Assembly (NCBI RefSeq): GCF_964204865.1
Contig: NC_135260.1
Span: 10,974,001-11,038,000 of the forward strand
Source: Styela clava
Lineage: Eukaryota
Reading direction: 5' to 3'
Length of the DNA stretch: 64,000 nucleotides
A model generated the notes under the pieces. That model searched no databases. It was not told where the DNA came from and saw nothing but the letters and a program-made list of their open reading frames with translations. Positions 25,260-59,640 of the stretch are shown here, piece by piece (position 1 is the stretch's first letter; every line of letters begins with the position of its first letter). Both the position numbers and the translations under genes were made by a program.

Positions 25260-26138
25260 TCAAAAGGCATGTTTGTATGCATACCATCCTATCAGAAGAG
25301 TACCACACCATGTGACAATAAGTGTGGTTATCTTGACAAAAGGACCATCCGAAAGTGCTCCTACAGGAATATCAATTTTTATTTCGGAGCCATTTTTATG
25401 ATCCAATGGGACCCATACACAAGTCGAACCTATAAGTGCAACAGTGTTTGTTACTATTTCTGCACAAGGGGCAAGGAACACATCTGATAAAGTTATGCAA
25501 ACTTGATCCTTTATACTCGAATGATACAGCAAAGGCCTTGAAAATCCTTCGCTATTTTCAATGCAAGATATCATTATTTTAGATGGTGGTATGACTGCAG
25601 TAATATGAGTTTTATTTACGTCATTCTCTGTGCTGCACAGATGGTATCTTGAGTGCCACGGCATGGAAATTTTCGATACCATTCTCCCTTCTATAACGCT
25701 TAATGAAGAATAAAATAAAACAGTGGATTCATGAGCAAAATACCGAGGAAGTTCCACATCTATGTTTTCATTGAAGAGTTCCACAAATTTATCTCTCTTC
25801 CTTTGTACTTCATATTGATCGATGAAAAATGAGTCTGGTACTGTTTGAACATACAAAATAACACAGTGGTTTGCAAAATCTTTGTCAGCAACAGAACTCA
25901 AATTGACAGTAGTGGTTACAATGTTGTGAAAGCCAGACTTTTCGATGTGTGAGTCAACAGTTACATCCAGAGGTGGCAGTTGAATAGATGACAAATTCAA
26001 TTTTGGTAATTTTAAGTTCTCTCTTATCTTGGAGCAATGCTTATCTTTATCAACATTATAACTGCATATCTTGCAAGGCCAAGCGTGTAAATACTTGATA
26101 TATACAAATAATAATATTAACTTGATATATATTCTCAT
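25260..26138 (-). CDS. PIGX: GPI mannosyltransferase I stabilizing subunit PIG-X (292 aa, intronless CDS)
   Basis: Signal peptide, GFHN, QTVPDSFFIDQYE, IDVELP, MPWHSRYH, IPVG followed by a C-terminal TM helix: PIG-X/PBN1 motifs. Confidence 0.88.
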   Translation of the reverse strand: MRIYIKLILLFVYIKYLHAWPCKICSYNVDKDKHCSKIRENLKLPKLNLSSIQLPPLDVTVDSHIEKSGFHNIVTTTVNLSSVADKDFANHCVILYVQTVPDSFFIDQYEVQRKRDKFVELFNENIDVELPRYFAHESTVLFYSSLSVIEGRMVSKISMPWHSRYHLCSTENDVNKTHITAVIPPSKIMISCIENSEGFSRPLLYHSSIKDQVCITLSDVFLAPCAEIVTNTVALIGSTCVWVPLDHKNGSEIKIDIPVGALSDGPFVKITTLIVTWCGTLLIGWYAYKHAF

Positions 26139-26725
26139 TGTATGCTGAAATGAAACATCCTGTTCAAAAAAGGAATTGATATCATCAAAGTTTTAATATA
26201 TCTTGAAATAAATTTTATATCCATTGACACAACAGGAAACAAGTGTCTGATTTTATCTTTATGTGGAGGTACTACGTACTAGGATAGATGCCAATTTGTG
26301 GTGGCATTTTCATTGAATCATGAAATATTTAATATAAATAAATACAGACAGAAGATAAATTAGGAATAATGACTGTCAAAATTTGTATAAATGGCACTTT
26401 CGACTTTGCAATAATTAAAACTTAAATATAAAAGTTGGCAAATATTTTGATGACCCACTTATATGATTTACCTATAAAGACTAGACAATAGAATAAGAAC
26501 TTCAAAATAGTATGAACTCTAAACATGGAAATCGAAAAAGAACACTTAGCTTCGACATGCATCCCACTAGAATATCTACTAAAGTGTTGCAATATAAAGA
26601 GAAAAGCACAGTGTAATACTGACGATTTGTGCTAATCTAGGCACAAAATTAAAACATCTTCCAGTTAGTAGGAGCTATCACAGGAATGTGAGTTGTCTAT
26701 GATTGCAGAAGATCACTGCCAAGTG

Positions 26726-27541
26726 CTAATCATCTGCTATCCTTAAAACCAGTCCACTGGTGGAAGGAATGCACTTTATCAAATCAGATCCAACTAGATC
26801 ATGTGTGTGATATGTTAGACCAAGTTTGATAGACGCAGGTGATTTACGAGACCTGAGTTCAGTTAATAGAATTTCTCTGCTCTTAGTAGCTCTAATCATT
26901 CTTATTGTTGCCTGTCTTCCTTTTTTAAAAATCTTTATAAATTGACCAGCGCCAGGTATAGAGAACCACCAACTTCCAGCATCTCTTAAAGTTAGAAGTC
27001 CGGCATTTACCAACTCTGTAATGTCTTTATCTTTAAATCCATATTGATTTATCATTGTATGTTCAGTAATAGTAAGTTCTGATATACTTCCAATAACCTC
27101 GATCAAAAATCGAGATATGATTTGCTCCCTGCTAGTTAACTTCTTATCATCTTTACGTTCACCCCGTCCTTCCCTAGATGAAATATTGTGATATCGATTG
27201 ACGTGAGCAATAAAATCTTTTGTTAATACAATCATATGCTCCTCATTTCTATGTTCCAAATGAAATATTTTTATTCGTCCACATTCAAAAAGATCATTTA
27301 CTTGCTGATCAACTGTCGTTCTATTTTCCAATAAAGCATACAATTGATGTTTAAAAACAATAGGCGGAAACCGGTTCTGCAGTTGTTCTTGTGGAAATAT
27401 ATTTCTAATGTGCTCAATTGCACTCATTGCATCAGTTATATTAGCTTCTGAATCTAGTTTTCCATTACTCCAAGGTATGAATGTTTTGGACTTCTTGCTG
27501 TTTCCAGGAGAGCCACGTAATATAGTATGTCGTCTCTTCAT
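26726..27541 (-). CDS. STK19: STK19 (winged-helix DNA repair factor, 271 aa, intronless CDS)
   Basis: PPIVFKHQLY..NRTTVDQQV; LVNAGLLTLRDAGSWWFSIPGAGQFIKIFKKGRQA; LGLTYHTHDLVG..TSGLVLR closely match STK19. Confidence 0.93.
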   Translation of the reverse strand: MKRRHTILRGSPGNSKKSKTFIPWSNGKLDSEANITDAMSAIEHIRNIFPQEQLQNRFPPIVFKHQLYALLENRTTVDQQVNDLFECGRIKIFHLEHRNEEHMIVLTKDFIAHVNRYHNISSREGRGERKDDKKLTSREQIISRFLIEVIGSISELTITEHTMINQYGFKDKDITELVNAGLLTLRDAGSWWFSIPGAGQFIKIFKKGRQATIRMIRATKSREILLTELRSRKSPASIKLGLTYHTHDLVGSDLIKCIPSTSGLVLRIADD

Positions 27542-28204
27542 TCCGTGACAAATAATATTTTAATTTAGTGTTAGTAATTATGCTGATCTATAGAGAAAAG
27601 AATAAAGTAATATAAAAACAAGCTTGAATATTTCACAGAAGTAAATTCACATCCAGTTGGATTGAAAAAAAATAGTAGAAGTACATTGGTACAATTTACA
27701 TCATTGTAACTCGAGAAATAATAAAGATTCCCCTCATGACGTTACTATTTCTCTAGAGATTTTGACAGCCAGTCATTCTTGATTAATTTTCACTGGAGAA
27801 AAAGTTTAACTGTTATCCAACTTAAACAGCAAAATAGTAGACAAGATTCGAAACATCTAATCTAAATTCCAGTCATATTTTATTTCGATTATTCTGTTTC
27901 ATTCATCAAGCATATAAATAGATTGAAGGCATGAAAAATATCATTTCTCTAAACAAATGACTGGGACTTCATCATAATATCCATGGACACATTAATACCA
28001 TGCCATTTCCTATCAAAAATATACACATAATCTAAAACAAGCCAAAAATAATAAATTTCCTCATCCAGTTCATATTATCCAAATGCCAGAAAGAATGCTT
28101 TTGGTAACAAGATTATGAACTTTGTCATATGTCGCTTGATACTATCCCTGAAAGACATGCCATCTTACTTAAATGATATAGGTGTGAAGTTCTATAACAC
28201 CCTT

Positions 28205-28957
28205 TCATGATTTTGGCACAAGATGCCGTGCGTTATATTTAGCACCCTCATCATATTTTGTCATATCTTTATCTGCAGTTCCGCAAGTACCAATTCCCAC
28301 TCTTCCAACAAGACCTTCAGGTGATGCAAATATACTTTTCTTGACGGCACCTTTCATAGACTTATGTGTGATTTTTTTATTAAATTCTTTCCATTTATGT
28401 TTCGAAATTTCAGATTCAGCTTCTTTCTCTTTTGCTCTCATTTTCTTTCTTTGATTTTTCTTTTTACGATATTCACGTTGTTGAATCATTAATTCCCGTT
28501 TACTGGCTTTTGATTTAAAACCAGCCTTGTCACCATCGGCAAGCAGTTTTAACTGCGTTAATTGACAAACATCTGGCTGCTCAAATTCATCAAATCGAAC
28601 TGCAACTGTTGCACTTTCAGGTAAAATTTCTTCGAGTACTCCTTTGTGATATTTCCCATCTCCACTCCATATTGCATAACATGGGTCACCTACTTTCCAC
28701 ATATGACGAGGACCACTGTCAGGCTGAACAGTCTCTTCTGCTATTTCTTCGGCGGTTTTTCCAGTTGTTGTTTTTGCTTTCGTTGAAGGTTTTGCAGCTT
28801 CTACTCCCATTAAATCTTTAGTTAGTTGAATAACTTCTTCAAGATCTTGCTTCAATTTTTTAAGTTCTTCATTTTCAGGATCTGCTGATAGAGCTGCCTC
28901 GACTTGCGCTAATTGCACTTTATAGTTTGTCAAATTTGCTTCCAATTCGGCAGACAT
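28205..28957 (-). CDS. SMNDC1: Survival motor neuron domain-containing 1 / splicing factor SPF30 (250 aa, intronless CDS)
   Basis: LTNYKVQLAQVEAALSADPENEELKKLKQDLEEVIQLT; Tudor domain WKVGDPCYAIWSGDGKY; KKSIFASPEGLVGRVGIGTCG. Confidence 0.96.
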   Translation of the reverse strand: MSAELEANLTNYKVQLAQVEAALSADPENEELKKLKQDLEEVIQLTKDLMGVEAAKPSTKAKTTTGKTAEEIAEETVQPDSGPRHMWKVGDPCYAIWSGDGKYHKGVLEEILPESATVAVRFDEFEQPDVCQLTQLKLLADGDKAGFKSKASKRELMIQQREYRKKKNQRKKMRAKEKEAESEISKHKWKEFNKKITHKSMKGAVKKSIFASPEGLVGRVGIGTCGTADKDMTKYDEGAKYNARHLVPKS

Positions 28958-29667
28958 GATTTTTTGTTTTAATAAAAATTCAAAGGTTTAAAAGATCTAA
29001 AGGTTTTCAAAACTGTTGTATTTGCAAAATGGTAAAATTATTCATTTATTAATTCTGCAATCCGGTACATATACGAAGAACCTCATTCCTATATTTCAAA
29101 CTTGAATTGTATAAATCCTGAAATCAGTACAATTATTTAAATTCATTTTATTTGTTAGACTACAGGTACAGGACTGGGCTTTATACAGATATACCAAATA
29201 TTACAAGTGAACACTAAATTAATGATAATGTAGTGGGGAAATTGAGATATATAGCAGTTTAAATTATACCGTACTAAACCTGATGAAAATTTAATTAATA
29301 TAATGTGTACAGGTTTATGACACCTGTTGTTCTATGGCCTACCGTACACTAGTTTATTATTAAGGTTTCGAGGGTGGCTAGTCTGGATTTCATGGCCTTT
29401 TTGAATGAGAAATCGGGCGTGCAATCAGAAATTCCTGCATGCAAATCAGAATTCCCTTGCGGGCGTGCGAAACAACTGCGCCCGCATGCAACTGACTTTG
29501 ACTTTAGATACCATTCAATACATTTATCAAAAAATTGTTATGCCACACCTACTACTAGCCTAGAAGTCTGTTAGGTACCGTAACAGTATAAGGTCAAGCA
29601 GAAATAAAAAAATGGAATACCGGTATGAAGGTACCGGTATCCCAAATCTCTGAATCTTGTGGATTCA

Positions 29668-31527: not shown

Positions 31528-34490
31528 AATGCCGGTGGAGTTGATCAGACAACATGGAACATACCTATATTTTTTTTTATCAATTGACGCCACAGGCACC
31601 TGATGTTGCAGAAAGTCGTTCCGCCTGTAGCCTGCCTGTCAGACTAGTTCAAGACGCATGTTGTTTTGGACATTGCAAAAAAAGGGAGGAAGCAACATCT
31701 TTGTGGTATCAATTATCACCGTCGATTTTGAACGAGGTAACTTATAACTTGTGACTTGAAAGTTTTCCCGACTAAAATAAATAATTAGAATTGTTTTAGC
31801 GGTTTTCGAAAATCATTGAAGATTTTCCTAAATATATTGTTAGAATTCACAAAACGAGGATAAAACACGAATTTATGTTCCGCATCTTCTTGTACTTGAG
31901 TATAGGACATGGGTACAACAATTCAAGATAGTTGTGAATACCAATTAATTTCAGCGCATTTTGTTGTAGTTTCGAATTATTACTAGCAATGAAAATCGTA
32001 GACGTCTCGAGCGGTCTTATAATATACTTTATGCTCTCTCCTTTTTTCACGACACGCTCAAGCACTTCTTGCTGTATTATTTATCACTCCTCTTCAGAAT
32101 CTCAGTCGAGAACCAACTGCTCCACATCCTTTCGAAAAAATATTGAGGGAACGAAATAGTCTCGATTACATGAAAAGAGTGAGTTTATGTTAACTATTGT
32201 TTTGTTACTCGAATGCACTGCGTGCAATAACATCTCAATAAAACTCAATTCTCTTTTTTCAGATGGATATAGAATAGCTAAAATTAGATCATTGGTAAGA
32301 TTATTATTGATAAAGATTTCAAATTAATATTGACCGTTATATATTATATCTGTTATTACAGAATACTTACGCTTTAATTTACAGGATTAAGATGGAAGTG
32401 AATCGCCGACTACATGCTGGCTCTATTACCTCCCTTCGGACTAATTATTTTTCATGTAAAAAGTTCTATTATCATAGTTATATATATTTTAGTTCATGCC
32501 TTCATTGCCTTAATACTTTATAATTTCAGGCCGAGGGGAGTCCAGGTTTATTTTTAGATTGGAATAGGGTAAGGTATAGCTAGAATATCGATATATATAT
32601 TAACATAGAGTAGTTAAAAATTCTCTTCAAACTCCAGTGCACTTAAGAATTGTTCGACAAGGTTTTTGAGGCGTGTCGGCCCACAGTTAATGAAAATCAC
32701 ATATTTCTTCTTCGTTTCAGCCGAGTTCATTTTCCGTTCGCCAGGAAACACACCACTTCCTTTTACATCAGAGTGGAATTTAATGTTGGAGATGAATTTC
32801 ATCCATCGATATATTGGGTTTGGCACTTTATTCGTACACTCACCAAAAATATCATGCTGACTAGTAGGCTATAGCAGTAAATTCAGTTAGGTAGTCACAA
32901 TATCCATCAATTTAAGTTTACCGTTACAATTTTATATCTATGGGTCAAAACTGCCAATATTGAGGAAGAGAAAACTACAGAGATTCAGGTGAGCTGTGCA
33001 AAAATTGTTTTATGTAATTCTTATACGCTACTCATATTGTCAAAAATATATTTACTAGATTGCAATGGCAGTAGCTAAAAGAATGAACTGGATGATAGAA
33101 CAAGTTGAAAATAACGTTGAAGAAGGTGTCCTGGGAAATATTGGTTAAACTTGAAATCTTCATAACGCATATATCATACAATATCATGGTAATTTAAATC
33201 TTCACAAGAAATTTTTGTTACTGATTTGGGAACCGAATTTCTATCGTGTTTTTTCAACAAATTCTACACCATGATCTTATGAAAAAACGTATATCTGATA
33301 CTTTTTACCTATGTCGTTTTTTAAATTATGAGTAAGTCTACTAAATTGATAATTATCATCTTTTTAATTTAACTTGTTGATAATTATAGGATTATGTGGA
33401 ACTCAATGGGAGCGATGTTCTTTCGATATCAAGTTGCAACTATTTACAAGTATGGCAGTTTCCTTTTTTTGTCAGACATACTTTAGAACACGTCAGTTAT
33501 AATTATGAATAAAATCGAAGTTTATATTTATTTATCGTTATTACATTTTTTTTAAATCGCTGGAAGAAGCTCCAGTCTCCAGTTTGTTGAATACAATGAT
33601 CGAGAGGTAGATTATATTATATTTTAACAATATCCAATAAATGCAAAAAAACGATTCAAAAATATTTCTGCATTTCATTTTTGCCATAGTTTGTAATTAT
33701 AAATTTTTTAACGGCTTTATTTCAGTTTGATAGTTTATCAGTATCGGTGGATATGAGCTTGGAAGATAAAGATGAAATCAAGATTCGAGAGGTGCGTTTG
33801 AATTTTGTTCATTATTTTGCATTCTGAATCAATAAAATTGTAAACTTTGTGCTAAGGACAATATTTTTTTTCTATGTATATTTCAACGAGTTTTAGTTTT
33901 CAAGCCAGTAAATTGTCTCAGTTATTTGACATCAAATATTCCTATATTTATTTTTAAAATAAGTACAATATCTGGAATTGATCTGATTGATATCTGAATA
34001 CAATACCTGGAATTGATTTTTTGCAGCTTGATACAAGAGAAACTTACGTTGTTGAAGGCGAACTTGCCAATATTACCTCTCTGATTTCTGTGAGTATTTT
34101 TTTTTATAGAATAACATAATTTTTATTGGTGTTAAATGAACGTAACAAGTTTATGATAGACTGATAAAACATATAAACAATGGGTTGATGAAATTTTGTT
34201 TGGCGAGTTGGAAGTCGTCGGTAGAGAGGTGAGCACGATAGGTAGTATTAAAATATTTCCCGACTCTTATATTTGTAATCCCACATTGTTTCATGCTGGT
34301 GTTTGACGTTTTAGTCTGAAATGAGGAATCAAATATTTTTCAATTATTCTTTTTCATCAACTTTGTCGAAGAGATTTTCAACACATTTCATCACAGTTCA
34401 CTAAGACAATTAGTGAACGGATTCCCGTTTGAACTCTTACGTTCAGATTCCCGTTTTAAAAACTGTTGAATTGTTTCAACCTGATATTAA
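31528..34490 (+). pseudogene. Partial unprocessed pseudogene: inverted duplicate of 55140-51468 of the phase-0 micro-exon gene
   Basis: Exon-by-exon and intron homology to the minus-strand gene. Lesions: acceptor AG>AA (~31583), 1-nt deletion giving TAG at 32275-32277, both splice sites lost at the ~32658-32686 exon, acceptors lost at ~32943 and ~33561. Confidence 0.85.
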
Positions 34491-40500: not shown

Positions 40501-43500
40501 GATTATGCTTGGGTGTTTGCAACAAAGAGGACCCTTGCGTTTGTCGAGAGGGTTACATAGAAAGAAGTAGAAATGATGATACTTGCATCAGGAAGGAACA
40601 TTGTCATGGAAGTAAATGCCTATAGTTTGTTCGCTGTGATAGGTATTTCTTTTTTATGTAGGTTTTATATTTTGAAATAAATCTCATCAATTTTAAAATT
40701 ACGGTATTTTTAAAATATTTGCATATTCGTGATGAGAAGAAAATAATTTGCACAATAAACAACCAATTCTAACTGTACACAAGGAACCCTCATGCGGTGC
40801 ATAATTTTGCAATCCTATTTGTGCTGTATATTTGATCGTATTAGTAGTTATTGTAAAGTATATATCGTCACGCTTATAACCGAATTGCGTAAGTCATTTT
40901 TGGCGATTTTGAGTTTTTTATAAAATAGGTATTTATGTAATGCTGCGCACCTGTCTGTTAACTCAGATTTTATTTTAGGAATTCCGAAACCCATAAAAAT
41001 GGAGATTTAGTATGACATGCACATTTGTGAAATTGTTTCGTCATAATGAATTATTCTTGTTACCGCAGTACTCTTGTGACGTCACAAAGGCAAAATAACC
41101 TCGGCGAAGTATTTTCGAGTTTTTGCATCTCGGATTCTAGCTTAGCGCGTATTAATTTGAATTTTTACTACAGTATAGGAAGACGTACACTTGTGATATT
41201 CACTGTCCAAGTCAAATTTACCTTGGTTGGCTTTTATATTGGGTGCATTGCTGTTTTATTCTTTATATTTAATCTTAGTCCTATTTCGGTGGGTGTGCAG
41301 AACGTGTTATATTGATGAAATATATATTTTTAAACATAAAAAATGATGTAATTGAAACTGATTAGCTATTTTGGGGATTAGACATTGTAGATACTGTGAA
41401 TTACATTCGTTTTTGGAATGTTTAGTTTTCAGGACTGGTGCATATAGTGAAGCTGCAAAATTGCGTATGTCCCCAAGTCATAGACACATTTCTGCCTAAG
41501 TCACAGTGCGCCATTATGACGTCACTTAACTGCGTCATACAAATTAACTTAAATCCGGCTACGATCAAAAAATTGAACCATGGCAAATTATTGACTCTCA
41601 ATTGCAACACAAAATCATTAGGAAGTTTTTTACGTTTTTCTCAAAACTGCTAAAAATGACTTACGCAATTCGGTTATTAGCGTGACGATATATTACTTGT
41701 TCCGCACGAAATGCATTCATTGCGAAGTGCTTATGATATATAATAATAAAAAATAAAAATAAAAAATAAACAGGGAATAACCCAAACAGTAAATTTTGAT
41801 CTGTTTTGATCTGTCCCTTTTCAGAATGTCCTGCGAATAAGATTCCTGTAGCATGTGCCACTATTTGTCAGCCAAATTGTGACGACCCCAACCCTATTGG
41901 AATATGCTTGGGTGTTTGCAACAAAGAGGACCCTTGCGTTTGTCGAGAAGGTTACATAGAAAGAAGTAGAAATGATGTTACTTGCATCAGGAAGGAACAT
42001 TGTCCTGGAGGTAAGTATCTATATTTTGTTTGCTGTGATAGGTATTTCTTTTTTATACAGGTTTTATATTTTGAAATAAATCTCATCAATTTTGAAATCA
42101 CGGTATTTTTAAAAAAATTGCATATTCGTGATGAGAAGAAAATAATTTGCACAATAAACAGGGAATAACCCAAAACAGTAAATTTGGATCTGTTTTGATC
42201 TGTCCCTTTTTAGAATGTCATGCGAATAAGATCGCTGTACCATGTGCCACTATTTGTCAGCCAAATTGTGACGACCCCAATCCTATTGGAATATGCTTGG
42301 GTGTTTGCAACAAAGAGGACCCTTGCGTTTGTCGAGAGGGTTACATAGAAAAAAGTAGAAATGATGATACTTGCATCAGGAAGGAACATTGTTCTGGAGG
42401 TAAGTATCTATATTTTGTTTGCTGTGATAGTTATTTCTTTTTTATATAGGTTTTATATTTTGAAATAATTCTCATCAATTTTAAAATCACGGTATTTTTA
42501 AAATAATTGCATAACGTGATGAGGAGGAAATAATTTAAACAATAAACAGGAAATAACCCAAAACAGTAAATTTCTGAGCTACACTTATTTCCAACCTAGT
42601 CAAATCGTATTGCGGTACTTTGTATTTGTTCTAATCTTTGAAATTTTACCACATTTTATCTTCCTCGTATGACAAATTAGTAGAAATTCAATACGCCTGC
42701 TTCTTTTTTATTCTCTTATTCGCGGAAGAAAATATTCACATATTTGGTTTTGCCAAATGTTTATTATGATTTTGATTTTTAGAATGTGGATTTGCTCAGA
42801 AGCCTACTACATGCGCTTCGTTTTGTCCGCCCACATGCCAAAACCCTGGGCCATCGATTTGTGTTGACGCCTGCGATCCATCTAAAAAATGCGTTTGCAG
42901 AGAGGGATATGTCCAAGTTAGCAATCATGACACTAGATGCACTTTGTTAAGGAACTGCCCTCGGCCCCATCGTGAGTAAAACATTATAAAATTGAAATTT
43001 ACCAGATAGCAATATACATTTTTGTTTTGTGTATGTATATAGACATTTTTGATTGCTGGCCAAATTCAGGCTGTTTCGTTTCTGTACAATGTCTGTATTT
43101 TCACATTTATGTTGAACAAATAATTTACATACGAGCTTGAAGTATAATTTCGGAATATTAAATAATTATCACGTGAAATGAGCCACGTAGCACTATGAAA
43201 GTTTCGCATTGATTGTGAAAACTGAATTATTATTATATATGAGGTAACATTGATCATTTTACGACAAATTATTCAACCAATATAAATGACTCTGAATCAC
43301 AATCAATATATAATTCTAATTTTTCTTGATGTTGAATTTCTTTTCAGCGTGTGATACTAAGAAATGTCCGCCTGGAAGTGTTTGTATTGACGGAAAGTGT
43401 CAATGTCGTAGAAGATGTCCCCCGAACGAACATTGCCTCAATGGGATATGCGAATGTCTACCAGGACATTACAGAAAAAAGGGGGTTTGCGTGCCATGTA

Positions 43501-46291
43501 AGTGACTTTTATACTCTCCAGGAAAACCAAACGCGCTGGTTATAATTATAACATCAAAACGCTGATAAACTAAAACAGTTTTTAAAAACCTCCAGCAGGC
43601 ATAACAGAGTTATAGCAGAGCATAATAGACCTGGATATTTGGGTCGTTTTGGGGTCTAAGTTATAATTGGGGTAAAACAATTCAGGCCGTTTCGTTCTTG
43701 TACAATGTCTGTATTTTCACATTTATGTTGAACAAATAATTTTTATACGAGCTTGAAGTGGAATTTCGACGTCATTATTGAATAATTATGACGTGAAATG
43801 AGCCACGTAGCACTATTGAAAGTTTCGCATTAATCGTGAAAACTGAATTAATATTATATATGAGGTAACATTGATCATTTTACGACAAATTATTCAACGA
43901 ATATAAATGACTCTGAATCACAATCAATATATAATTCTAATTTTTCCTGATGTTGAATTTCTTTTCAGTGTGTGATACTAAGAAATGTCCGCCTGGAAGT
44001 GTTTGTATTGACGGAAAGTGTCAATGTCGTAGAAGATGTCCCCCGAACGAACATTGCCTCGATGGGATATGCGAATGTCTACCAGGACATTACAGAAAAA
44101 AGGGGGTTTGCGTGCCATGTAAGTGACTTTTATACTCTCCAGGAAAACCAAACGCGCTGGTTATAATTATAACATCAAAACGCTGATAAACTAAAACAGT
44201 TTTTCAAAAACCTCCAGCAGACATAACAGAGTTATAGCAGAGCATAATAGACCTGGATATTTGGGTCGTTTTGGGGTCTAAGTTATAATTGGGGTAAAAC
44301 AATTATAAATTAGAAGTAACATGTCAAACGAAAAACGATAAAGGCTTTTTAATCCATGTTTTTAAAATTAATAAATTCAGTTGAAAAATACAGCATGAAA
44401 TTGAATATCACAGATATATATGTGCATGATTTTTTCTGAATTTTCAGATAAAACCTGCCCAATATATTGTCCCCCTAACAGTATCTGTGAAAACGGAAGA
44501 TGTGTGTGTGAAAAGGGATATGAGTGGAGAGGAAACAAATGTGTCGGTGAGTAAAAGAGTAATTTATTTTAAGTATCAATATATCACAATTGTTAGTTTT
44601 AACTCTATGAAGAAGGCCAAACTTCGATATGACAGCGGTTCTTACATTTTATTACAATACATGTACTAGAGTTATATTATGCATCATGTTTCAAATGAAA
44701 AATACGCGAGGCAAATAGACGTAAAATATGCTGAACTGACTCAAGAATTTGAAAAAAAAACAAAATACAGAAAACACTGGACTACAAATAAATAGCTATT
44801 ATGTGTCTAAACGACTCTAAATTACCGAAAGCTTCACGTTTGAATCCACTTTTGAAGTGTTACTTTCTGTTTTGAGTTGATTAATAATGTTGAAAATATT
44901 GTTAGCTAAAAATTCATGTAACAGAAAAAAATATTATGGTCGTTTTTCGTTTCCTGTTTCAGAAAAATGTAGAAAGCAAATATGTGGTGATCACGGAGAA
45001 TGCAGGAATGGAAAATGCGTTTGTTTTAAAGGATATGAACTTGATAAGAGCGGAAAATGTGTCGGTATGTGTGAATTTAGACGCTATCATGAATATAACT
45101 TGCCAAACCAATGGATATTCAATTACATAAAGACAAGATTGTCTTGTTCGATAATCCACATCCGCCTAATATATGATTTTTGTTCTTGAGAGCATTCGAA
45201 TTTCATATTATTTTATATATTCTACTAAATATATACAAACACTTTGCGCGATTGATTTATTTCATTGTCCGATTCGTATCCGTTCATATTATAGGAATAT
45301 ATGCAAGTTAGTGTGCGAGATATGACAACGAAATTTACTCAGAAGTTCGTTAGTCCAATTAGGATCAAAAATAATTTCATATTCAAAAGTAAATTTTTCT
45401 TTAGTTCTCCAATGTTAAATTAATATAATAGTGTTGTAATTTGATCTTTTTCACCTCTTCCCTTTTTCATAAAACACATAGACCAGGTAGTGTTTGAGAT
45501 ACTTTTTTGATATTATAGATATATGCCGTCGAATGCTTTGTGGACCAAACGAAATTTGCCACGCTGGAGAATGCCGTCGTGAGTAAAAAATATTAGCTCT
45601 TGCCACATCTATATTCCGAACGTATGAGCAATTTTTTTCGACTTTCAATACTGCGGTAGTAACCACTATAAGAAGTTGTAATTTTTGAGTTATATTTATA
45701 TAATAAACTTACATTGTCAGTAAAAATATTATTTGAATGTTCATTTTCAGATTCGTGTGCTCTTATATTTTGTGGGCCGGGTACAACATGCATAAATGGA
45801 AAATGCGTTTGCAAAAATAGAGGGCATTCACTGGTCGCAGGCCATTGCATAAGTAAGTCATTTATGCTTCATGGAAATAACACAAATTTAAATTATAATT
45901 TAATAAATTTCAAAATAAACTAATTTTCACTATTTCCTGTATCTACTGATAATAACTACAAACCACTACCCCATACACATTTGGCTGAATTGAGAAAAAT
46001 ACATTCATATGTAAAATATTTTAAACTATTCAAATGAAAAGGGATCTCGAGTTGGTGCATTTCATGACCAGTTTCAATTAGCAATAATTACTTAACATTC
46101 CTTCCGTTTTCCAATTCTTTGAAACGAAATAATCCCTTTTTTGGAATATCGAATAACCAATACCAATAATAAAACATCTAATTTTTTTTTTCATTTGTTC
46201 TACAGAACAATGTCGCCCTCGTTGTAAACCAGGATGGAAATGCGTTTCAGGAGTATGTGTGTGCGTCGGAATCTATTGTCCGTACAGATAG
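37535..46291 (+). CDS. Secreted cysteine-rich modular protein: signal peptide, four short C-x-C..C.DG.C modules, five TIL (trypsin-inhibitor-like) domains, seven EB/EGF-like modules; ~17 exons, phase-1 introns
   Basis: MASILLSLCLTTLVFVTASC signal peptide. TIL exons at ~40060-40233, 40426-40611, 41825-42010, 42214-42399, 42783-42972 (10-Cys pattern C..C...C.PTC...C...C...CVC..G...C....C). Last exon 46206-46291 ends CPYR*. Confidence 0.85.
37848..37966. mobile_element. Merlin-like hairpin MITE in intron 1 of the Cys-rich gene
   Basis: GG...CC termini, near-perfect ~40-bp TIR, perfect 8-bp TSD GTTTATTG. Confidence 0.8.
40400..42575 (+). repeat. Three near-identical exon+intron units encoding TIL domains 2-4 (~40400-40760, ~41770-42155, ~42156-42575)
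   Basis: Introns as well as exons are almost identical, unit ~390 bp. Confidence 0.9.
43063..44303 (+). repeat. Tandem duplication of a ~620-bp exon+intron unit
   Basis: 43063-~43682 is nearly identical to ~43680-44303; ORF track shows identical 64-aa peptides 621 bp apart. Confidence 0.92.
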
Positions 46292-49468: not shown

Positions 49469-49910
49469 CAGGGTTGTCCATGAGAATGGAATTCCCATGG
49501 GAAACGTCCCATGGGATGGGATGGGACAGCACACATTTGTATTTCCCATGGGACAAGTGGGACACGAAAATTGTATAATTTTCGGGGAAATGATGGTAAA
49601 ATTATTTAGTGTCTATATTGAGCATAGCTCTCTTGTTAGCTATAAAAAACAAAATATATTCAGCATTACCAATATACTTCGTGATGGGGCGGATGGTCAC
49701 ATGCATGATAGTTATGACTATAGAGTTAACAAATTTCGTAAATTTTTGTTGTTTTGCATGGCTCTTCGTACATGTAGTCCTATTTAGTGAACGCTAAACC
49801 AAAATTTAACAATTTTTATTGAATTTTATTTCAATGGGAATCTTATGGGATGGTTTAGGCATAATTTTTATGGGAATGGGACAGAAAAATATGTCCGATG
49901 GACAAGCCTG
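49469..49910. mobile_element. hAT-type MITE with ATGGG(A) subterminal repeats
   Basis: TIR CAGGGTTGTCCAT / ATGGACAAGCCTG, perfect 8-bp TSD TGTAAAAC; absent from the paralogous copy near 31226. Confidence 0.88.
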
Positions 49911-50368
49911 TGTAAAACTATTTCTAAATGTATATACTTGTTGCTCTGACAGTATTGAAGTGGGTTGCCACGAATCCCACATCAAGCGTCAGATCTGTCA
50001 CAGCAATAAATCAAAACGTTGCCCTTAGCAAGTCCGTGGAGGTTGCGACTCGACCATCAGCCGCATTTTGTAGCTTTTAAATGGTGACACGCGACCTTGC
50101 TTCGAGCAGTCTTACATACAAAATACTATTACATTAGAGAGGCCAAATTACGTTGAACTACGAGATAAATTCTAACTGTACTAAATATATATATATAACA
50201 AAAAAAAAACGAATCCGTTACAATAAAATTGTCTCGTTGGGTTTATCCTACATAAAATCATTTCTGATCAATTTGCTCTGAACAATTTGGTAAAATTGCT
50301 GCCGAATCATCCTGTCGTTTGTTGCCGAATATGTTGACGACAGGATGCTCATATTGATGTCCAGTCGT

Positions 50369-53300
50369 TTATACCAGTGTTGGTTCGGAAAGAAAATCCT
50401 GCAATTTTAAAATAAAAACTCAATGTGTAAATTAGAAAATTTCTGATTGTCAAGGTGTAGCTCTGTCAAATGTAATGAACGTCAATAAGGAAGGATTATT
50501 TTGAAGAAAAATATTTTATGCTACAACTTGATTTGAAACATATTTTGGGGATTATAATTCCATGTTTTTGGACGGAATAGAAAAAACGTCAGTGGTAAAT
50601 ATAGCAAGATAAATACACCTTTATGTGATTCTTTATCAATAGAAGTTTAATAGGCAAATAAATTTAAGTTTGCTTGGATCAGACAGAATTCACATAATAG
50701 CATTTTACAACTAACCTGTATAAATTTATCGACGTCTTCAGGATCTTCCTTTGAAGATGACTTTGTTTTTGATTTATTTTTCTCGTCCTTAAACTGGAAT
50801 TAAAATATTAAGAAATTGATATATTTCTGTTGCATTTGAACTTTATATTACTGAATTAATGGATTTCATGAATCGCATTTTCTTGTCAAACTAATTTTAC
50901 AATATTTTTGAGAAGAAGAAGACCGTAAATTATAAGGTGTGGAATGTTTTGGAGAATAAAGTTTTAATCGAGTTAAAAATAGCAATAAACTCACTCTCTC
51001 TTCTTCCATCAAACTTTTAGTGTTGTCCAAAATTTCGTTTATCATGTCATCGATTGGAGTTTCTGATTTTTCATCCATCTATCAAATATTATTATAAATT
51101 ACAAAATTTTTAATAAAATACGAATGTTACTTTAAATTAAATCGACTTTGTTTCGCCATTATGCCCTAACAGGACCCTAGACTAGACAAACAGTCTCATT
51201 TAGATAGCGATCTAATAAGATGTCGATCAATAGAGCCTAGCATGCACCAAGAGAAGTCAATCGAGAAAAAAAGTTGTACGCTGATTAATTTGTCTTCTCT
51301 ATGTTTAACTCATAGGATCTTATTGCTACGATATAATGATGAAACTTCAACTAAATAAAAAAACGTTGAAACGTATCATCATATCTTACAATTGGCTCGA
51401 GGTAGGAGGCATCTTGTTCAATAATGTATGTCGCTCGTGACATCATCTGTAAGCAATTACATCAATATTAAAATCGGTTTGGAATAATTCAATAGATTTT
51501 AAAAAGGGAATCTGAACGAAAGAGTTCGAACGCGTTTTATTGTATGCTTGCTTGTTTGTACTATTCCGACCAAAAAATAGTCTCAATGATCCGTGATAAA
51601 ATGTGGTAAAAATCTGTTCTACGATGTTGATTTCAAAAAAGAATTAAAATATATTTGATTGTTCATTTCAAATAGAAACGTCAAACGCCAACATGAAACA
51701 GTATGGGATTGAAAAAATAAAAGTCGGAAAATATTTTAATGCTATCTATCATGCTTACCTCTCTACCAACGACTTCCAATTCGCCAAATAGAATTTCATC
51801 AACCCACTGTTCACATGTTTCGTCAGTCTATAATAAATTTGTTGCTTTCATTTAATATCAACAAAATTATTTCAGTGTTATTTTATATAAATTTACTCAC
51901 AGAAATCAAAGAAGTAACATCGGCAAGTTCGCCATCAACAACGTAAGTTGCTCTTGAATCAAGCTGCAAAAAATCATTTCCATATATTGTTTTTCTTTTA
52001 AAGTTAAATATAGGATTATTTGGTTGTTAAATAACTGAAAAACATTTACTGATGTGGAAACTAAAACTTGTTAGAATATACCAGGGTTCCATGGAAGAAT
52101 ATTGTCTTTGGCACAAAGTTCACAGTTTTATTGATTCAAATTTCAAAATGCTACATAAGAAACAAAATTTAAACGAACCTCTCGAATGTTAATTTCTTCA
52201 TTGTCTTCCGAGCTCATATCCACCGATACTGATAAACTATCAAGCTGAAACAAAGACGTTGAAAAATTTATAGTCACGAACTATGGCAAAAATGAAAAGC
52301 AGAAATATTTTTGAATCGTTTTTTTTCATTTAGTGGGTATTGTTAAAATGTAATATAACTTACCTCTCGATCATCGCATTCCTCGTTGACTTTCAAACTG
52401 AAAACTGCAGCTTCCTCCTGCGATTTTCAAAAATATAATGATGATAAATAAATATAAACTTCGATTTTATTCGTAATTATAACTGACGTGTTCTAAAATA
52501 TGTCTGACAAAAAAAGTAAACTGCCATACTTGTAAAGAGTTGCAACTTGATGTCGAAAGAACATCGGTCTCATTGAGTTTCACATGATCCTATAAATATT
52601 GAACAAAATATTAAAAAAATGATAATTATTATCATTTTAGTAGACTTACTCATCATTTGATAAACGACATACTGAGAAATAAAAAGTATTTGAAAAAAAA
52701 TATAGGTGAAAAGTATCAGATTTAACGGTTTTGCATAAGATCATGGTGTAGAATTTGATGAAAAAACACGATAGAAATTAAGTTCGAAAATCAGAGGCAA
52801 AATTTTTTCGTTACTAAAAATTTTTAATAATACTGTTGATAATGTATGCTACATAGGTTTTTGAGCTTTAAGTTTGACAAATATTTCCCACGATATCGCC
52901 TTTTACCGATAATATTCAGAAAAAAAATTTTCAGCACTTCGAATTCATGCAAGACCAATTTCAACTCACTTTAATATTGGAATCGTTGGATGAATTTTCT
53001 TCAACGTTATTTTCAACCTGTTCAAGCATCCAGTTCACTCTTTCAGCTACTGCCATTGCAATCTAGTGAATATATTTTTGACAATATGCGTATCATATGA
53101 AAGTTTAAAATAAAGCAATGTTTGACTCAAACAGTTTACCTGAATGTCTGTTGTTTTCTCTTTTTCAATATCAGCAGTTTTGACCTGTAGATATAAAATT
53201 GTACTGTTAAACCTAGATTGACAGATACTTTCGCCTATCCAACTGAATTTATTTTTTCACTAGTCAGCATGACATTTTTTGCAGCATATATAAAGAGGAA

Positions 53301-56300
53301 TACTATAACACTAAAAAAGAACATAATAATGTTGTGTTTCTGTTCAAACCCAAGTATTTTGGTGAAAGATTGAGTAAACGAATCACAAAAAAAATCAATA
53401 TTTATTGCGACAAGTATAATATTTACTACTATATATACGTAAATATAAACTATTCATCAGACCTCAGGTATTCCATCTGTAACATCGTTGGCCACTTCAT
53501 ATTCCGACTCAGGAGAAGCGGTAGGTGTGATTTGTTTTGATTTGGCACAATCCTGTCATATAAATATATGTTATAATTGAATGAGATCATAATTGAAAAA
53601 AATTAGGTTAGAAATATATATACAAGTTTGAGTAGATTCTTGTAGTAGCGCTGTTAGAACAAATATTATTACATTAGACAGAATGCATTCTGAACCGAAA
53701 ACATATATAAGACCTAATTTTAGCCCTGAAGTGGACCCGAAACCTGGAATAGCCAAATAACATATCGTCGATAAGCTCGAGTTGTTTCATTCATCAACTC
53801 AAGATTTGAGATAACTTATTTGTTGTATTCCACCTCACGTCCGACCACATTTAAACTTTGAAGAATAAACTAGCAAACCCTAAACATCGATTAGCCAAAT
53901 TTATCTCTAACCTCTGATTCTTTGTTAATATTCCAGTCCGATGGAAAAGGAGGTGGTGTGTTTCCCGGCAAGCGGAAAAATGGATTCGGCTGCAACGAAG
54001 AAAAAATATATGTGTGTAATTTTTTATTACCTGTGAGCCGACACGCCTTAAAACACCTTGCTAAACAATTCTCAAGTGCACTGGAGTTATGAGAGAATTT
54101 TTTAACTATACCCCATGTTTATATATCGATATTCTAGATATAACTTACCCTATTCCAATCGGAAAAGAAACTTGGTCTTTGCTTGGCCTGAAATTGTGAA
54201 GTAATCATGTAATGAAGGCATGAATTGAAATGATATAACTTATTATATAAAAATAATTACTTCGGAAGGAGGTAATAGAGCCAGCATGTAGTCGGGCGAC
54301 TCACTTCCATCTGAATCCTGTAAATTGAAACGTAAGTATTCTGTTTTAATAGATATCACGGTCAATAATAATTTGAAGGCTTTATCAATAAAAATCTTAC
54401 CAATGACCTAATTTTAGCATATTCTATGTCCATCTGAAAAAAAAAGAATCAAATTTTAGTAAGATGTTATTGTACGCAGTGCGTCCAAGTAACAATAGTT
54501 AACATAAACTCACTCTTTCCATGTAATCGAGACTATTTCGTTCGCTCAATATTTTTTCAAATGGATGTGGAGGAGTTGGTTCTCGACTAAGATCCTGAAG
54601 AGAAATAATGAATAATATAGTCAGAGGTGTATGAGCATAAAGTAATTATACGACAAAGTGAGAAGTCTACGATTCTCATTGCCAGTAGGCTAATAATTCA
54701 AAACAACAATAAATGCGCCGAAATGAGTTGTTATTTAAACTTATCTTGGGTCGTTGCATGTATTAGATGGCACGATATAGGAATTGGCGTTTTATCCTCG
54801 TTTCATGAATTCTAGCAATATATATAGTGAAAGGTTCAATGCTTTTCTAAAACCGCCAACGCAATTCTAATTGTATATATATTGGCCTGGACAATTTACG
54901 CTCAAGTCACAAGTTATGATTTATACCTCGTCTGAAAACGACGGTGATAGCTGATACCACAAAGATGTTGCTTCCTCCTTTTTATTGTTTCTAATGCAAT
55001 GTCCTGAACAACATGCATCTTGAACTAGTCTAACAGGCTGGCTGCATACGGAACGGCTTATCGTGACATCTGGTGCCTGTGGTGTCAACTGATAAAACAA
55101 AAATAAAGAACGTTTTCTTATCAACTTTAATCCCGACATTGAATAGCTTTGGCCTTTATTTTGTTTTTGGTTTTCACGTACACAATGAAGTAATGCACGT
55201 AAATTATATATAAATGTGAACGTGGTTGGATATTCATCAGAATGAATAGTAGGCCTATGTCCTATGTTTTATGGACGCTTGGCTAGAGGCTTGTTGGTAA
55301 AAATCGGCAAATTCTTCACGAAAAGTGTAAACTACCTGGATTGTAGATGTGTATTTTCCTATCGGATGATCTTCTTCAAAACTCTCCGTTTCTCTCTCTT
55401 GACTTTGCATGCATACACACAGCTGAAAATTATACGAGTTTGAAATTTCTCGATTTTCTTGTTTATAAAAATATTCACCAGAGATCAATCGATAACAAAA
55501 TATTGTTACTTCAGTTCTGACCGGATGATGTAGTAGAGATGTGGTGTTAGAATAAAATAAAAAAATCTGTGACCGTGACCACAGCTTGATAAAACTTTTG
55601 ACCCGAAAACAGTTATCAAAAAATGACCTATTGTATTTAGAGACAACAAATTTAAGAAACACTTGACTTGTACTGCATTGTAACCTATTTCTAAAACTGC
55701 AGTAATCAGATTCATTTGTCAAACAAATGCGAGTAAGATGCTACGACACTGATAGTTCGTGACTCAATAACAGAGATACGAACCTTGCTAGACTGTTTCC
55801 TTGCCCAGTCACGAATGATATTCAAGATTGTAGGAGGCAACTCTCCTTTGGATGGATCCTGGAAGGCCAATGCATGTAATAACCTTTTTTAATTATATCG
55901 AAGGGCAGATCTCAAAAAAGTAAGAAGGATTTGTGCTGTAGGGATCCTGGTCATACCTTTTCTTCGGACATAGGCTTACATTTATTAAGACGTTAGCTAA
56001 GTGTTTTCATAAGACAATTAGGGAAGGCTAGTGTTTGCATTTATTATCCAATTTTCTCGGAATTGCAATCGAAGTCAAAACTTTTTTCAGTCCAGAGTCG
56101 GGGGCCGAAGACAAGTTTGAGCCTGAGTCGTTTATTAATATGTTAAGAGTCTGGTGCGTATTTCTCTAACTATGCGGAATTTCTTTTCTACAAGCAAAAG
56201 AATTCTACGTTAAATTCTATCCCAACATCACTGTGTTGCGAAAATTGAAAATGGGGGGAAAATAAGTCCATCTATCTGTTTTGTTTTGTCTTGTGTTAGC

Positions 56301-56799
56301 TATATCTATATTATCTGGCCGGTGTAGACGCCCTACTTATGGTTGAACGACATTTCAAGGCTTGACTAAAATATCGTCAATTTAAATATATATATATATG
56401 ATTACACCAACTATTATCGGATTTCGAGGATTGGTTAGGGTTTTGTACACAAGCTACAGTAATTTAGACATTAACCGCGAACAAATAAATTATGACGTCA
56501 TAGATCTGTACAGAAGCAAATGCATTTCATTCATGGAAAAGCTTAATCTTGTATGCTGAAATCGCGCCATTTTACCCTGCTCCTACTAAGAAGAATATCA
56601 ACCCTTATATCAATATAATATTTATATCTTTGTTAAGTTATACCATTGAAATATTTTATCCAACCTTTTCGAGCTCCTCCTTTTGCCTCCTGCAAAAAAG
56701 TTTGGCACATTTTTTAAAAGCTTTGACTGCTTTGTTTATAGATTTTTGCCATCCCACTTGGCGTCTGAATACTCGAATTCTTCTTTTTCCTTGACCCAT
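50369..56799 (-). CDS. Orphan ~520-aa protein (basic N-terminus, acidic low-complexity remainder) encoded by ~23 small symmetric phase-0 exons
   Basis: Exons (nt): 56799-56665 (135), 55974-55957 (18, tentative), 55858-55784 (75), 55422-55336 (87), 55088-54927 (162), 54594-54514 (81), 54433-54401 (33), 54340-54305 (36), 54187-54149 (39), 54060-54031 (30), 53989-53912 (78), 53552-53463 (90), 53184-53140 (45), 53062-52970 (93), 52589-52530 (60), 52417-52364 (54), 52244-52179 (66), 51963-51901 (63), 51827-51759 (69), 51446-51390 (57), 51078-50995 (84), 50793-50716 (78), 50398-50369 (30, stop). All GT-AG and stop-free in frame 0. Confidence 0.72.
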
Positions 56800-58258
56800 T
56801 TTCTACGAAGAAATAGGAATATTGAATAAACAACGAATTCCAAAAACTATTTCAGATAATACGAAAAAATATCGAGCAACTTACCATAGGTGTAGAAATT
56901 GGAATAAAATACAATTTTCATAAGTGTAACGAGTTGATAAAGTCCATTGTTTGCGAACATTTAGAACCTTTAGTGACGTCATAATACAAATCCGTTACCA
57001 GCTATCAACACGTCAGATGGTCACAATTTATGGTGAGATAGGGCTCAGGGATAAAACATCATCTATCGATCGTACTTCAGTTCAGGTTTGTTATGGAAAT
57101 AGCTAATTTTACAGTTAATCCAACCAAACGCATGGAATGGAAACGTATGCCTTATCGCGTTGTTCAAATGGTCTTTATGACTTTTCGCTAAGTTGTCAAC
57201 TGCATTCTCAAGTCGTCAAAGCCGGAATAAATAAATTTACTGTCACATGACCAAAGCATTTTGCTAACCCCTTCCCTGTGAGATATAAAAAAATCATCTG
57301 TATCATACATAGCAAGTAGTTTGAAACGCATTTTAGACCTTCAAGATTCTCGAAACCCCACGTTTTCCGGCCCCAGCCGGACACGATAGCGGTTGACAAA
57401 TTTCGACCCACCCCCATTCGAAAATTCCTGGATACGTCCCTGAATTACGCGGCCTAATCATATGGAGAACGACGGTTTGCGAGCGCATTCAGTACTGGGG
57501 ATGGAAAAGCACTGATATGGTTGGAAAACAGCGTGTCAGTGAGCCTAGCCAATGTGCGTAGTGAATAGTGGGCGTAGGTAGGTAAATTTGCAAAATTGCA
57601 CTGATTTTTTCCGTCCTTAAGAAAGCAATTTTTTTGCTTTATCGAATATTTGTGAACTGTTATGCTAATTATTATACCCTATTGAATTTTATTTTTGGAT
57701 CTTCCCAAGTTTAAATACGATATCGTGGATGTTTTAGTCATGATTGTCGAACAAGGAAAACAGCATATTCATCCGAATGACTACATTTATCATCGTACCA
57801 CCCACTCCTTTCAAAACTTTAATTCACATACCTCAGGCAACAACACACAATTCTTTCCAAATTAAATAAAATTTAAATATTATACAGGCTTAATTATTCG
57901 CTGTGCAGACGTCGATCATGCCCGATTTCGCTCCAAAACTCACATCGCGCATTTTCCAAATCAAGCGGAAAAGGCGCGTACTCTTCCCCATGATATACAA
58001 TGCCGATATGTAAAAGTCAGTTAGTCATTGTTCCGATGGACAGAAAGGAAGCAGGGTATATAAAACGCCAATCGATAGTTTTTACAATATAACTTCTGAA
58101 ATAGATTTGACGTAAATCTGTATATATTGCCAAACATAGCGCATATTGAAATGATTTAATGAAAAATATACATGTATCATAGTTTAAATAAAATATGTAA
58201 CTAAATTTACTGAAAAATTGAACAATAATCTTTTTACTTTGATACTGAACGTCTAATG

Positions 58259-59640
58259 CAGGGGTGGCCAACCTTTCACATACCATGCGCCACGTTTTAA
58301 ACATAATGTTTCAGATGCGCCGTTAATCTCTTGTATTCCCACGCCTAATGTCCGCTTCTTGTTGAAATTATATAAATTTATAATACACACACATATATAC
58401 ACACGTATATGTAGTTTTTACAATTTACAACTTCACATGAATAGAAATTAAGCAAGGAAGTATAATAAATAAAACTGATCAATTTTATTTTTAAGTACCG
58501 CCTTTATGAGACTTTTGCTGCTGTTTTAATTTCGCCATTTTTTTTTATTCTTGGAGTTAAGTTTGTTACTGAGAGGAGGAGTGCATTCTTCAAATTTAAA
58601 TCTGTAAGTCTTGACCTCGCTTTGCTTTTAATTAGTTTCATGGCAGAAAATGTTTGTTCACATCTATATGTCGTTCCGAAACGACATATAAAACCCTGGG
58701 CAAATTTTCTCAGTTCTGGAAAATTTTCACGGGGTAACGATTGCCAGAACTTGATCATGTCAGATGCACTTGGGACTGAAGAAAGCTCATCAAATTTAAT
58801 TGTGACGCCATGCTTCAAGTAAAAACTACAGCCTTCCTGAAAGTAGGAGAAAAACGCATTCTGTCTTATGAGCATTACGCAATAAAGCTGTTTTTAACAA
58901 CGAAGAGAAAAAGGTACGATTAAGAAGTAAAGTTAGGCGTAATATTGTGACAACAGGCCTTTAGTATCAATATCTACTCTACCCTCGATTCTAATCGGCC
59001 TTTGCTAATCAGCTGTTTGGCCTAGCGTCGCGTGACTTTACTCCAGGCTTCTTCGAGATTAGAACTTGCGTCACAGCAAGCGATTTTACGCTTCGCTTTT
59101 GTTGACAACGGTCATTTGAGGTTTGGATGAAAAAGGTGGTATTTAGGGGTCATTTTCAGCATGTTGTGGGTTGATTTATAATAATTTTTTTAGGCTTGGG
59201 CAATTCAACTGGTTGTTCAATAGTTATTGGGAAGTCTGGGCAATGGAAAATCCATGTTTCAAGCTGATAAATGACGATTTTCTATTTTTCCAGAAGTTCT
59301 GAACTTTTTACTTCAGTAGGGAAAAAATAGTAAACTTTACTAATTTTTGCTAAAAGTCTAGATTCTAGAATGAATGTCATAAAGTCCGTCCAAAAGCTAA
59401 CGTCGATAATCGCCTGTTGTTTCTAATTCCAACAAGCCGTAAGTGAGCGACGTGGAGTAAGGAGAATAGATTTTAGGTACAACCAAAAGTCACCATGTAA
59501 ATCGCAAAAAAACGGCTTGGCGTGGAGAAGCCAAGTGCAATTAACAATTTTGGCATGAAAAAGGTTGAAGATGCAATGCGCCACCTCTAATCATGCAATG
59601 CGCCACGTTTGGCGCATGCGCCATAGGTTGGCCACCCCTG
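58259..59640 (-). mobile_element. Non-autonomous hAT (Buster/SPIN/Charlie-type) deletion derivative
   Basis: Perfect 16-bp TIR CAGGGGTGGCCAACCT, TSD GTCTAATG/GTCTAGTG, ATGCGCCA subterminal repeats. Confidence 0.92.
58504..58800 (-). pseudogene. C-terminal fragment of a hAT (Buster/GTF2IRD2-like) transposase, dimerization domain
   Basis: FWQSLPRENFPELRKFAQGFICRFGTTYRCEQTFSAMKLIKSKARSRLTD. Confidence 0.88.

Follow-up and report, generated by a model that had tools for sequence, protein, structure and literature searches.

The 64,000-nucleotide stretch of the sea squirt Styela clava analysed here (positions 10,974,001 to 11,038,000 of contig NC_135260.1, or C14; referred to as the window and numbered from its first letter) carries an uncharacterized gene, LOC120347021, whose 21 coding exons are separated exclusively by phase-0 introns. 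The gene has one dominant spliced form, is under purifying selection and differs from its paralogs by the turnover of whole exons. With a probability of roughly 65%, we read it as a member of a five-gene, lineage-restricted and spliced family that evolves through turnover of phase-0 exons and that is predicted to encode a disordered, membrane-tethered cytosolic scaffold for short motifs. In our best reading the uniform intron phase is both the trace and the enabler of exon-module evolution, and not a device for combinatorial splicing.

Structure and splicing of the gene

LOC120347021 is a real and spliced gene. It runs along the minus strand from its start at 56799 to its stop at 50369, and all 20 of its introns, which measure 73-806 nt, have GT-AG borders and lie in phase 0. 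The 19 internal exons are 33-162 nt long (median 69; 1 of 19 at or below 36 nt and 3 of 19 at or below 51 nt), and every one is a multiple of three. The structure was first rebuilt from splice signals as 24 candidate exons, of which 21 were kept after comparison with RNA contigs, and their translation agrees letter for letter with the 511-residue RefSeq protein XP_039272761.2 (P0001), the record of which is an automatic, uncharacterized model with the same exon structure. An initial annotation, made from the letters of the window, had proposed exons that are all multiples of three, phase-0 introns with canonical sites and the possibility of skipping any internal exon in frame, all of which hold.

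Contigs of public runs X1, X2, X6 and X9 were aligned to positions 49500-58500 with X2 as the comparison run; none of 11 runs is recorded as RNA, and that X1, X6 and X9 represent RNA is a guess whose only backing is the spliced joints that X2 lacks. At least 17 of the 20 junctions of the phase-0 model are found in X1 (15 in the joint table, 1 in a further table and 1 as matching loose ends), and among the joints listed 5 recur in X6, 2 in X9 and 0 in X2. Junctions 50398/50716, 54187/54261 and 54594/54927 are not among the joints listed for the runs. Exons 8-18 are covered by a single X1 contig path at a depth of about 114, neither RefSeq version of LOC120347021 bears an isoform label, and word-based protein database searches returned no further isoform of the gene. 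Run depth (about 114-172 in X1, 3-4 in X6 and X9) was not used as evidence of expression, nor were the zero word shares of runs X7, X8, X10 and X11. Eight exonic variants were present among 40 of the 207 variant rows, half of them (4 of 8) altering a residue. The gene is flanked by high-copy repeats at 49500-49910 and 58250-58500, with depths of up to about 3900 in X2.

The 21 internal exons of 18-162 nt first described exceed the 19 of the supported model by what we infer to be an 18-nt candidate (55957..55974) and a 30-nt candidate (54031..54060), both on the minus strand. Neither is used in the RNA seen: joint 55857/56664 skips the former in X1, X6 and X9, joint 53989/54149 skips the latter in X1, there is no extra cover in their bins, and RefSeq omits both. 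A caution attached to the initial annotation, that exons chosen by eye favour in-frame solutions, proved well placed, as 5 of the 20 real introns between them offer six in-frame, stop-free candidates of 18-45 nt. Its label of micro-exon gene (MEG) did not survive, since exons here are about fourfold longer than is typical of MEGs and RNA skips the two shortest candidates. A 22-nt candidate in intron 12 (52671-52650, minus strand) was also rejected, being skipped by joint 52588/52969 and bound to break the frame. This stretch has a consensus GTAAGT donor, and a donor-like site is kept in the pseudogene and the C8 paralog described below, the acceptor being found only here; it is possibly a decayed exon.

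Taking human phase-transition rates as a proxy (from Table 2 in the excerpt of PMC3632108), 20 phase-0 introns in a row have a probability of about 1e-6 for ordered and about 3e-4 for disordered proteins, rates that may not be those of Styela. The excess of phase 0 suspected at the outset is thereby borne out, with the human proxy standing in for the genome background itself. By this analysis the run appears to be real, uncommon and beyond chance, yet of a kind to be expected now and then among disordered proteins.

Read along the minus strand, exon 1 (56665..56799, 135 nt from the second ATG) is polybasic and, like exon 2 (55784..55858, 75 nt, placed by RNA joints), is predicted to form an amphipathic helix. 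Exon 3 (55336..55422, 87 nt), placed by RNA contigs and paralog alignment, contains an invariant CxC and is followed by exon 4 (54927..55088, 162 nt). The conserved core comprises exon 5 (54514..54594, 81 nt; 13 of 27 residues invariant in the five paralogs), exon 6 (54401..54433, 33 nt), which is the shortest and most conserved (8 of 11 invariant), exon 7 (54261..54317, 57 nt; matching contig loose ends and RefSeq), exon 8 (54149..54187, 39 nt; RNA contigs) and exon 9 (53912..53989, 78 nt), with an NPF and a proline-rich motif. RNA contigs likewise place exons 10 (53463..53552, 90 nt), 11 (53140..53184, 45 nt), 13 (52530..52589, 60 nt), 14 (52364..52417, 54 nt), 15 (52179..52244, 66 nt), 17 (51759..51827, 69 nt), 18 (51390..51446, 57 nt) and 19 (50995..51078, 84 nt), with amphipathic helices predicted in exons 17 and 19. 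Exon 12 (52970..53062, 93 nt) is a predicted helix module, exon 16 (51901..51963, 63 nt) is homologous to exon 18, exon 20 (50716..50793, 78 nt) is placed by one contig joint and RefSeq, and exon 21 (50369..50398; RNA contigs and splice model) holds the last 9 codons and the stop, followed by the 3' untranslated region.

An upstream in-frame ATG (56885..56887, minus strand) ends an exon 0 that would be joined across an 82-nt intron (56884-56803) to give a protein starting MK-MG. The arrangement ATG GTAAGT at the end of exon 0 is seen in 4 of 5 genes, and RefSeq models P0005 and P0018 start MKMG; the exon 0/1 junction of the focal gene is not among the joints listed in the contigs. Further upstream, 97 nt from the exon-0 donor, lies the palindrome TGACGTCA (56974..56981), which resembles a cAMP response element (CRE) and is likely a promoter element. 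Four of the 5 genes have it exactly, at -96 to -102, and the fifth has TGACATCA at -97. A second TGACGTCA lies at 56493-56500 in the first coding intron, and CRE-like 8-mers are also seen at 41077 and 41517. The CRE-like element that the genes share hints that expression may be regulated, possibly in testis.

A family of five genes with exon turnover

Searches of the animal's own genome gave four further genes that keep the phase-0 design, located on C8 (17,768,366-17,776,732, minus strand; 77% identical to the focal protein by alignment), C9 (15,207,445-15,215,954, plus strand; 83% identical over its first 230 residues), C14 (12,658,178-12,665,821, plus strand; 39%) and C6 (10,250,713-10,255,640, plus strand; 36%). 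Over the five gene models, 92 of 95 introns are canonical and in phase 0, a count that steps over an internal repeat in C9. The remaining three comprise a C8 donor that now reads TT, an unplaced acceptor in C9 and, in the C14 paralog, a break of the frame in exon 14, which another database model (P0019) reads through. The C14 break and the TT donor, which belongs to the last C8 intron, may be null alleles or assembly errors. The family tree resolves only the group formed by the window gene, C8 and C9.

These four paralogs give independent support for the exon boundaries, which had previously been sought in a pseudogene within the window. This partial inverted copy (31584..34490, plus strand) covers exons 4-17 with their introns, has frameshifts, stops and lost splice sites, among them those of the 30-nt candidate, and has exon 10 deleted. 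Being a copy of genomic DNA, with introns almost as well matched as exons (82% vs 87%), it does not count as independent evidence. Other family remnants are exon-1 fragments on C3 and C16. An 89-bp tandem repeat at about 1,656,770-1,657,470 of C16 (8 copies, 82% matches) is made up of sequence resembling family exon 1 and is surrounded by broken exon-1 fragments, with further clusters near 1.669 and 1.70 Mb.

Sequence comparison shows that, from copy to copy, whole exons have been duplicated or lost, or have been lengthened in frame. A 1.5-kb repeat in C9, 94-97% identical, spans exons 3-8, each of the six exons copied staying in frame, and no match to exon 13 was found in this paralog. In the C14 paralog exons 11-12 occur twice and exon 8 is missing from the model; C6 has three Cys-led exons resembling exon 3, a second exon 12 and none of exons 15-21. 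Exon 14 is decayed in C8 and omitted from the C8 model. Exon 3 of the focal gene is 27 nt longer than the 60-nt exon of all four paralogs, likely through an in-frame donor shift, and exons 16 and 18, the best of 210 focal exon pairs (z 6.1 for protein, 4.8 for DNA), are likely an old exon duplication. Ordinary in-frame alternative splicing occurs in the family as well, seen in RefSeq isoform pairs of two paralogs: the C9 pair (P0004/P0011) differs by skipping of a 162-nt exon, the counterpart of exon 4, and the C8 pair (P0016/P0010) by an acceptor 57 nt upstream.

Purifying selection acts across the focal, C8 and C9 genes. The ratio of nonsynonymous to synonymous substitution rates (dN/dS), a check named in the initial annotation, is 0.29 between the focal gene and C8 (confidence interval 0.21-0.40) and 0.25 between the focal gene and C9 (0.18-0.35). 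In exons 5-9 it falls to 0.19 (C8) and 0.08 (C9), and in exons 10-21 it is 0.43 (C8) and 0.37 (C9). Synonymous divergence is saturated against C14 and C6.

As first supposed, the family seems undescribed: no paper on it was found by identifiers or by titles, none was found linking Styela clava with micro-exons, and no Pfam family lies above the cut-off for the focal protein. Neither a search with exon 1 among 1.84 billion representatives nor three word-based searches gave a homologue outside S. clava, apart from P0012, an unnamed fragment of 52 residues that is 49% identical to exon 1; searches of both kinds are weak for exons that are short and evolve fast. Hits to P0014 and P0015, both repeat proteins, were taken as chance.

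Predicted properties of the protein

The encoded protein is basic in residues 1-45 (net charge +13) and acidic in residues 241-511 (net charge -46), and no signal or transmembrane (TM) stretch was found in it (maximum Kyte-Doolittle 19-residue value, KD19, 0.57), in accord with the original description of a protein lacking a signal peptide, basic at first and then acidic and probably disordered. Disorder is indeed predicted. FoldIndex gives 81% for the focal protein, a weak indication beside 50% for the ubiquitin control; the Atlas model has a predicted local distance difference test (pLDDT) score of 0.39 and a predicted template modelling (pTM) score of 0.18; and AlphaFold2 (AF2) modelled paralog P0017 as isolated helices only (pLDDT 56.5), best in residues 131-160. 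Atlas features reached at most 0.77 for the whole protein and 0.75 for residues 140-250, both below the bar. Foldseek gave no match in the PDB at E<=0.001, the VIA wide structure search returned generic long helices (best Z 7.3), a PDB sequence search gave 1 hit at E 0.49, and Rfam gave no match.

Invariant in the five paralogs are MG.G..RIR..RR...W in exon 1 (Gly2 included), C.C in exon 3, ESPD.M in exon 7, PN.F..LPG.TPP in exon 9, and three tyrosines, in exons 4, 5 and 6, a fourth being Phe in two of the paralogs. N-myristoylation, suggested in the initial annotation together with the basic patch, was not supported, since its pattern (Gly2 with a small residue at position 6) is found in 0 of 6 MG-starting sequences, and it is further opposed by the upstream in-frame ATG of 4 of 5 genes; Gly2 is nonetheless invariant.

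We propose that the basic amphipathic helices of exons 1-2, together with the likely palmitoylated CxC of exon 3, would hold the protein at the membrane. The conserved core of exons 5-9, with a predicted helix bearing two invariant tyrosines and with ESPD, PNxF and TPP, would then recruit partners, with the acidic tail keeping short amphipathic helices apart from one another; these helices may recruit partners of their own. Uniform phase 0 would let such modules be added or dropped without a frameshift.

Several points weigh against a motif scaffold shaped by exon turnover. Most of the doubt concerns function, which is read from sequence and structural models only, and the protein matches no Pfam family. 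Its motifs are short and common, with shuffle probabilities of 0.40 for the ITIM (the tyrosine-based inhibitory motif of immunoreceptors), 0.24 for CxC and 0.05 for NPF, and the NPF of exon 9, kept in 4 of 5 paralogs, is NSF in C14. Most paralog boundaries were taken from RefSeq models or, in the last C8 exon and the 3' portions of C9 and C14, from reading. Only 1 of 210 exon pairs within the focal gene is clearly homologous, and tandem copying therefore fails to explain most of its phase-0 introns. Extra depth per exon base is 402 at exon 3, 195 at exons 5-6 and 174 at exon 18, vs 114-172, a surplus that could stem from allelic contigs that overlap, from paralogs or from minor isoforms, and contigs drop rare forms, such that minor isoforms of the gene may escape.

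Alternative explanations

The product might instead be a structural or anchoring protein of sperm or testis with AKAP-like helices, driven by its CRE. The positional conservation of the CRE-like site and the repeated, amphipathic helix of exon 12, present in two copies in the C14 and C6 paralogs, speak for this, and CREM-tau reportedly drives spermatid genes in the mouse. However, although amphipathic helices are present in the protein, the strict AKAP pattern is found in 0 of 7 sequences, and the window as a whole is in any case rich in the TGACGTCA 8-mer (5 vs 0.73 expected). We regard this explanation as unlikely.

The initial annotation favoured combinatorial splicing, by which many combinations of skipped exons in some cell type would generate a protein repertoire. 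All internal exons are frame-preserving, the C9 and C8 isoform pairs differ in frame, exons 3, 5-6 and 18 show the surplus depth noted above, and Botryllus FF genes splice combinatorially according to the excerpt of PMC12582321. Three database models 91-97% identical to P0001 also lack exons, namely exon 7 (P0002), exons 15, 16, 18 and 19 (P0006) and exons 1-2. These near-identical models, LOC120347023, 931 and 933, are separate loci, presumably of an older assembly, and may be copies, alleles or errors; P0006 has one stretch that resembles a repaired frameshift, and P0002 and P0006 may be assembly artefacts. Set against these points are the one contig path at a depth of about 114, the missing isoform labels and a dN/dS below 0.45 throughout. 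A combinatorial repertoire is unsupported, with one dominant form and rare forms possible, and we judge this explanation to be quite improbable.

Just as improbable, in our estimate, is a phosphotyrosine adaptor that lacks a TM helix, is lipid-anchored after the logic of LAT and PAG, and uses exon 6 as an ITIM module. The ITIM consensus I-x-Y-x-x-I, quoted in the excerpt of PMC12582321, fits exon 6 in 5 of 5 paralogs, and the tyrosines of exons 4, 5 and 6 are invariant. Yet the pattern arises in 40% of shuffles, the fourth tyrosine is Phe in two paralogs, and the segment is predicted to be helical. SH2 ligands bind in an extended form.

A more elaborate scheme, in which combinatorial splicing in a tissue or cell type averaged out by pooled contigs would swap tyrosine, NPF and helix modules on a lipid-anchored cytosolic scaffold, is more doubtful still; if true, the family would diversify inside the cell in the way that MEGs or Fester do, with alleles and copies also differing by whole exons.

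Least credible is an endocytic adaptor binding ubiquitin through a ubiquitin-interacting motif (UIM) in exons 5-7 and partners through the NPF of exon 9, for although the phi-x-x-A-x-x-x-S-[LM] spacing of all paralogs resembles that of a UIM of the genome, the P0017 model is best predicted where helix 144-159 lies and NPF is kept in 4 of 5 paralogs, the exon-6 spacing scores at most 12 on a UIM profile vs 26-34 (leave-one-out) for six Styela UIMs, the acidic N-terminal run is missing, and no PF02809 match was found. A prediction of ubiquitin with residues 160-204 gave no answer (score 0.02), and its alignment was not used.

Neighbourhood of the gene

Adjoining the window upstream of the gene (C14:11,038,001-11,058,000) is a long tandem array with a translated repeat of about 24 residues and open frames of up to 2952 codons, interrupted by two frames that read as transposase-like. 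Within the window, repeated Cys-rich exons at 41800-45868 look like TIL and EGF-like modules, and an intact frame of 692 residues at 13114-15192 (minus strand) resembles a DDE transposase that carries a PHD-like finger at its C-terminus. Three single-exon frames form a tight cluster at 25260-28987 (minus strand) and resemble PIG-X, STK19 and SMNDC1, and Gln-rich C2H2 zinc-finger exons are found at 4337-10192 (minus strand).

Comparison with known systems

The family resembles schistosome MEGs in having 10-20 or more exons, mostly multiples of three, and in being multigene and lineage-restricted. According to the excerpt of PMC10526429, MEGs encode a signal peptide and have exons of 6-81 bp (mostly 15) and introns of up to 5 kb, whereas the focal gene has a median exon of 69 nt, introns of 73-806 nt, no signal peptide and one main form. 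With Botryllus Fester and FcoR it shares membership of an ascidian multigene family, exon skipping and ITIM-type tyrosine motifs. Those proteins, however, are TM receptors with Ig or Sushi domains, while the focal protein has neither TM helix nor Ig domain, and shows purifying selection between its paralogs.

A closer likeness is to disordered proteins with symmetric exons, for which the excerpt of PMC3632108 gives calpastatin and MAP2 (phase 1,1) and MBD1 (0,0) as examples. In these, too, same-phase exons match short functional modules and exons are duplicated internally, and the sea-squirt family shows the same pattern of same-phase exons, predicted disorder and exon duplication. No homology to calpastatin, MAP2 or MBD1 was found (a PF00748, or calpastatin, search was uninformative, with no match even for its controls), and the family appears lineage-restricted and is spread over four contigs. 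The finding would carry greater weight if exon combinations proved by long reads to be cell-specific, or if the conserved exon 5-6 helix turned out to be a new binding motif.

The architecture comes closest to that of the secretory calcium-binding phosphoprotein (SCPP) genes (AMBN, ENAM and the SIBLINGs), virtually all introns of which are in phase 0 and whose families diverge as 0,0 exons are added, duplicated and deleted, according to the excerpts of PMC6732285 and PMC3632108. All-phase-0 introns (92 of 95 here), disordered proteins and the addition, duplication and deletion of whole exons are common to both, and AMBN likewise has two in-frame starts, the upstream one weak and the downstream one strong. 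SCPPs differ in being secreted vertebrate mineralisation proteins with a signal peptide, in place of which the sea-squirt proteins have a basic N-terminus; no SCPP- or SPARC-type hit was returned by the searches, a miss that is weak for proteins as poorly conserved as SCPPs. The architecture may thus be viewed as SCPP-like on a cytosolic protein. Set side by side, the five paralogs let one trace how a young cytosolic disordered protein gains, loses and duplicates whole exons or changes their length in frame, and to a principle known from SCPPs and human disordered proteins they add an invertebrate chordate example from an uncharacterized family.

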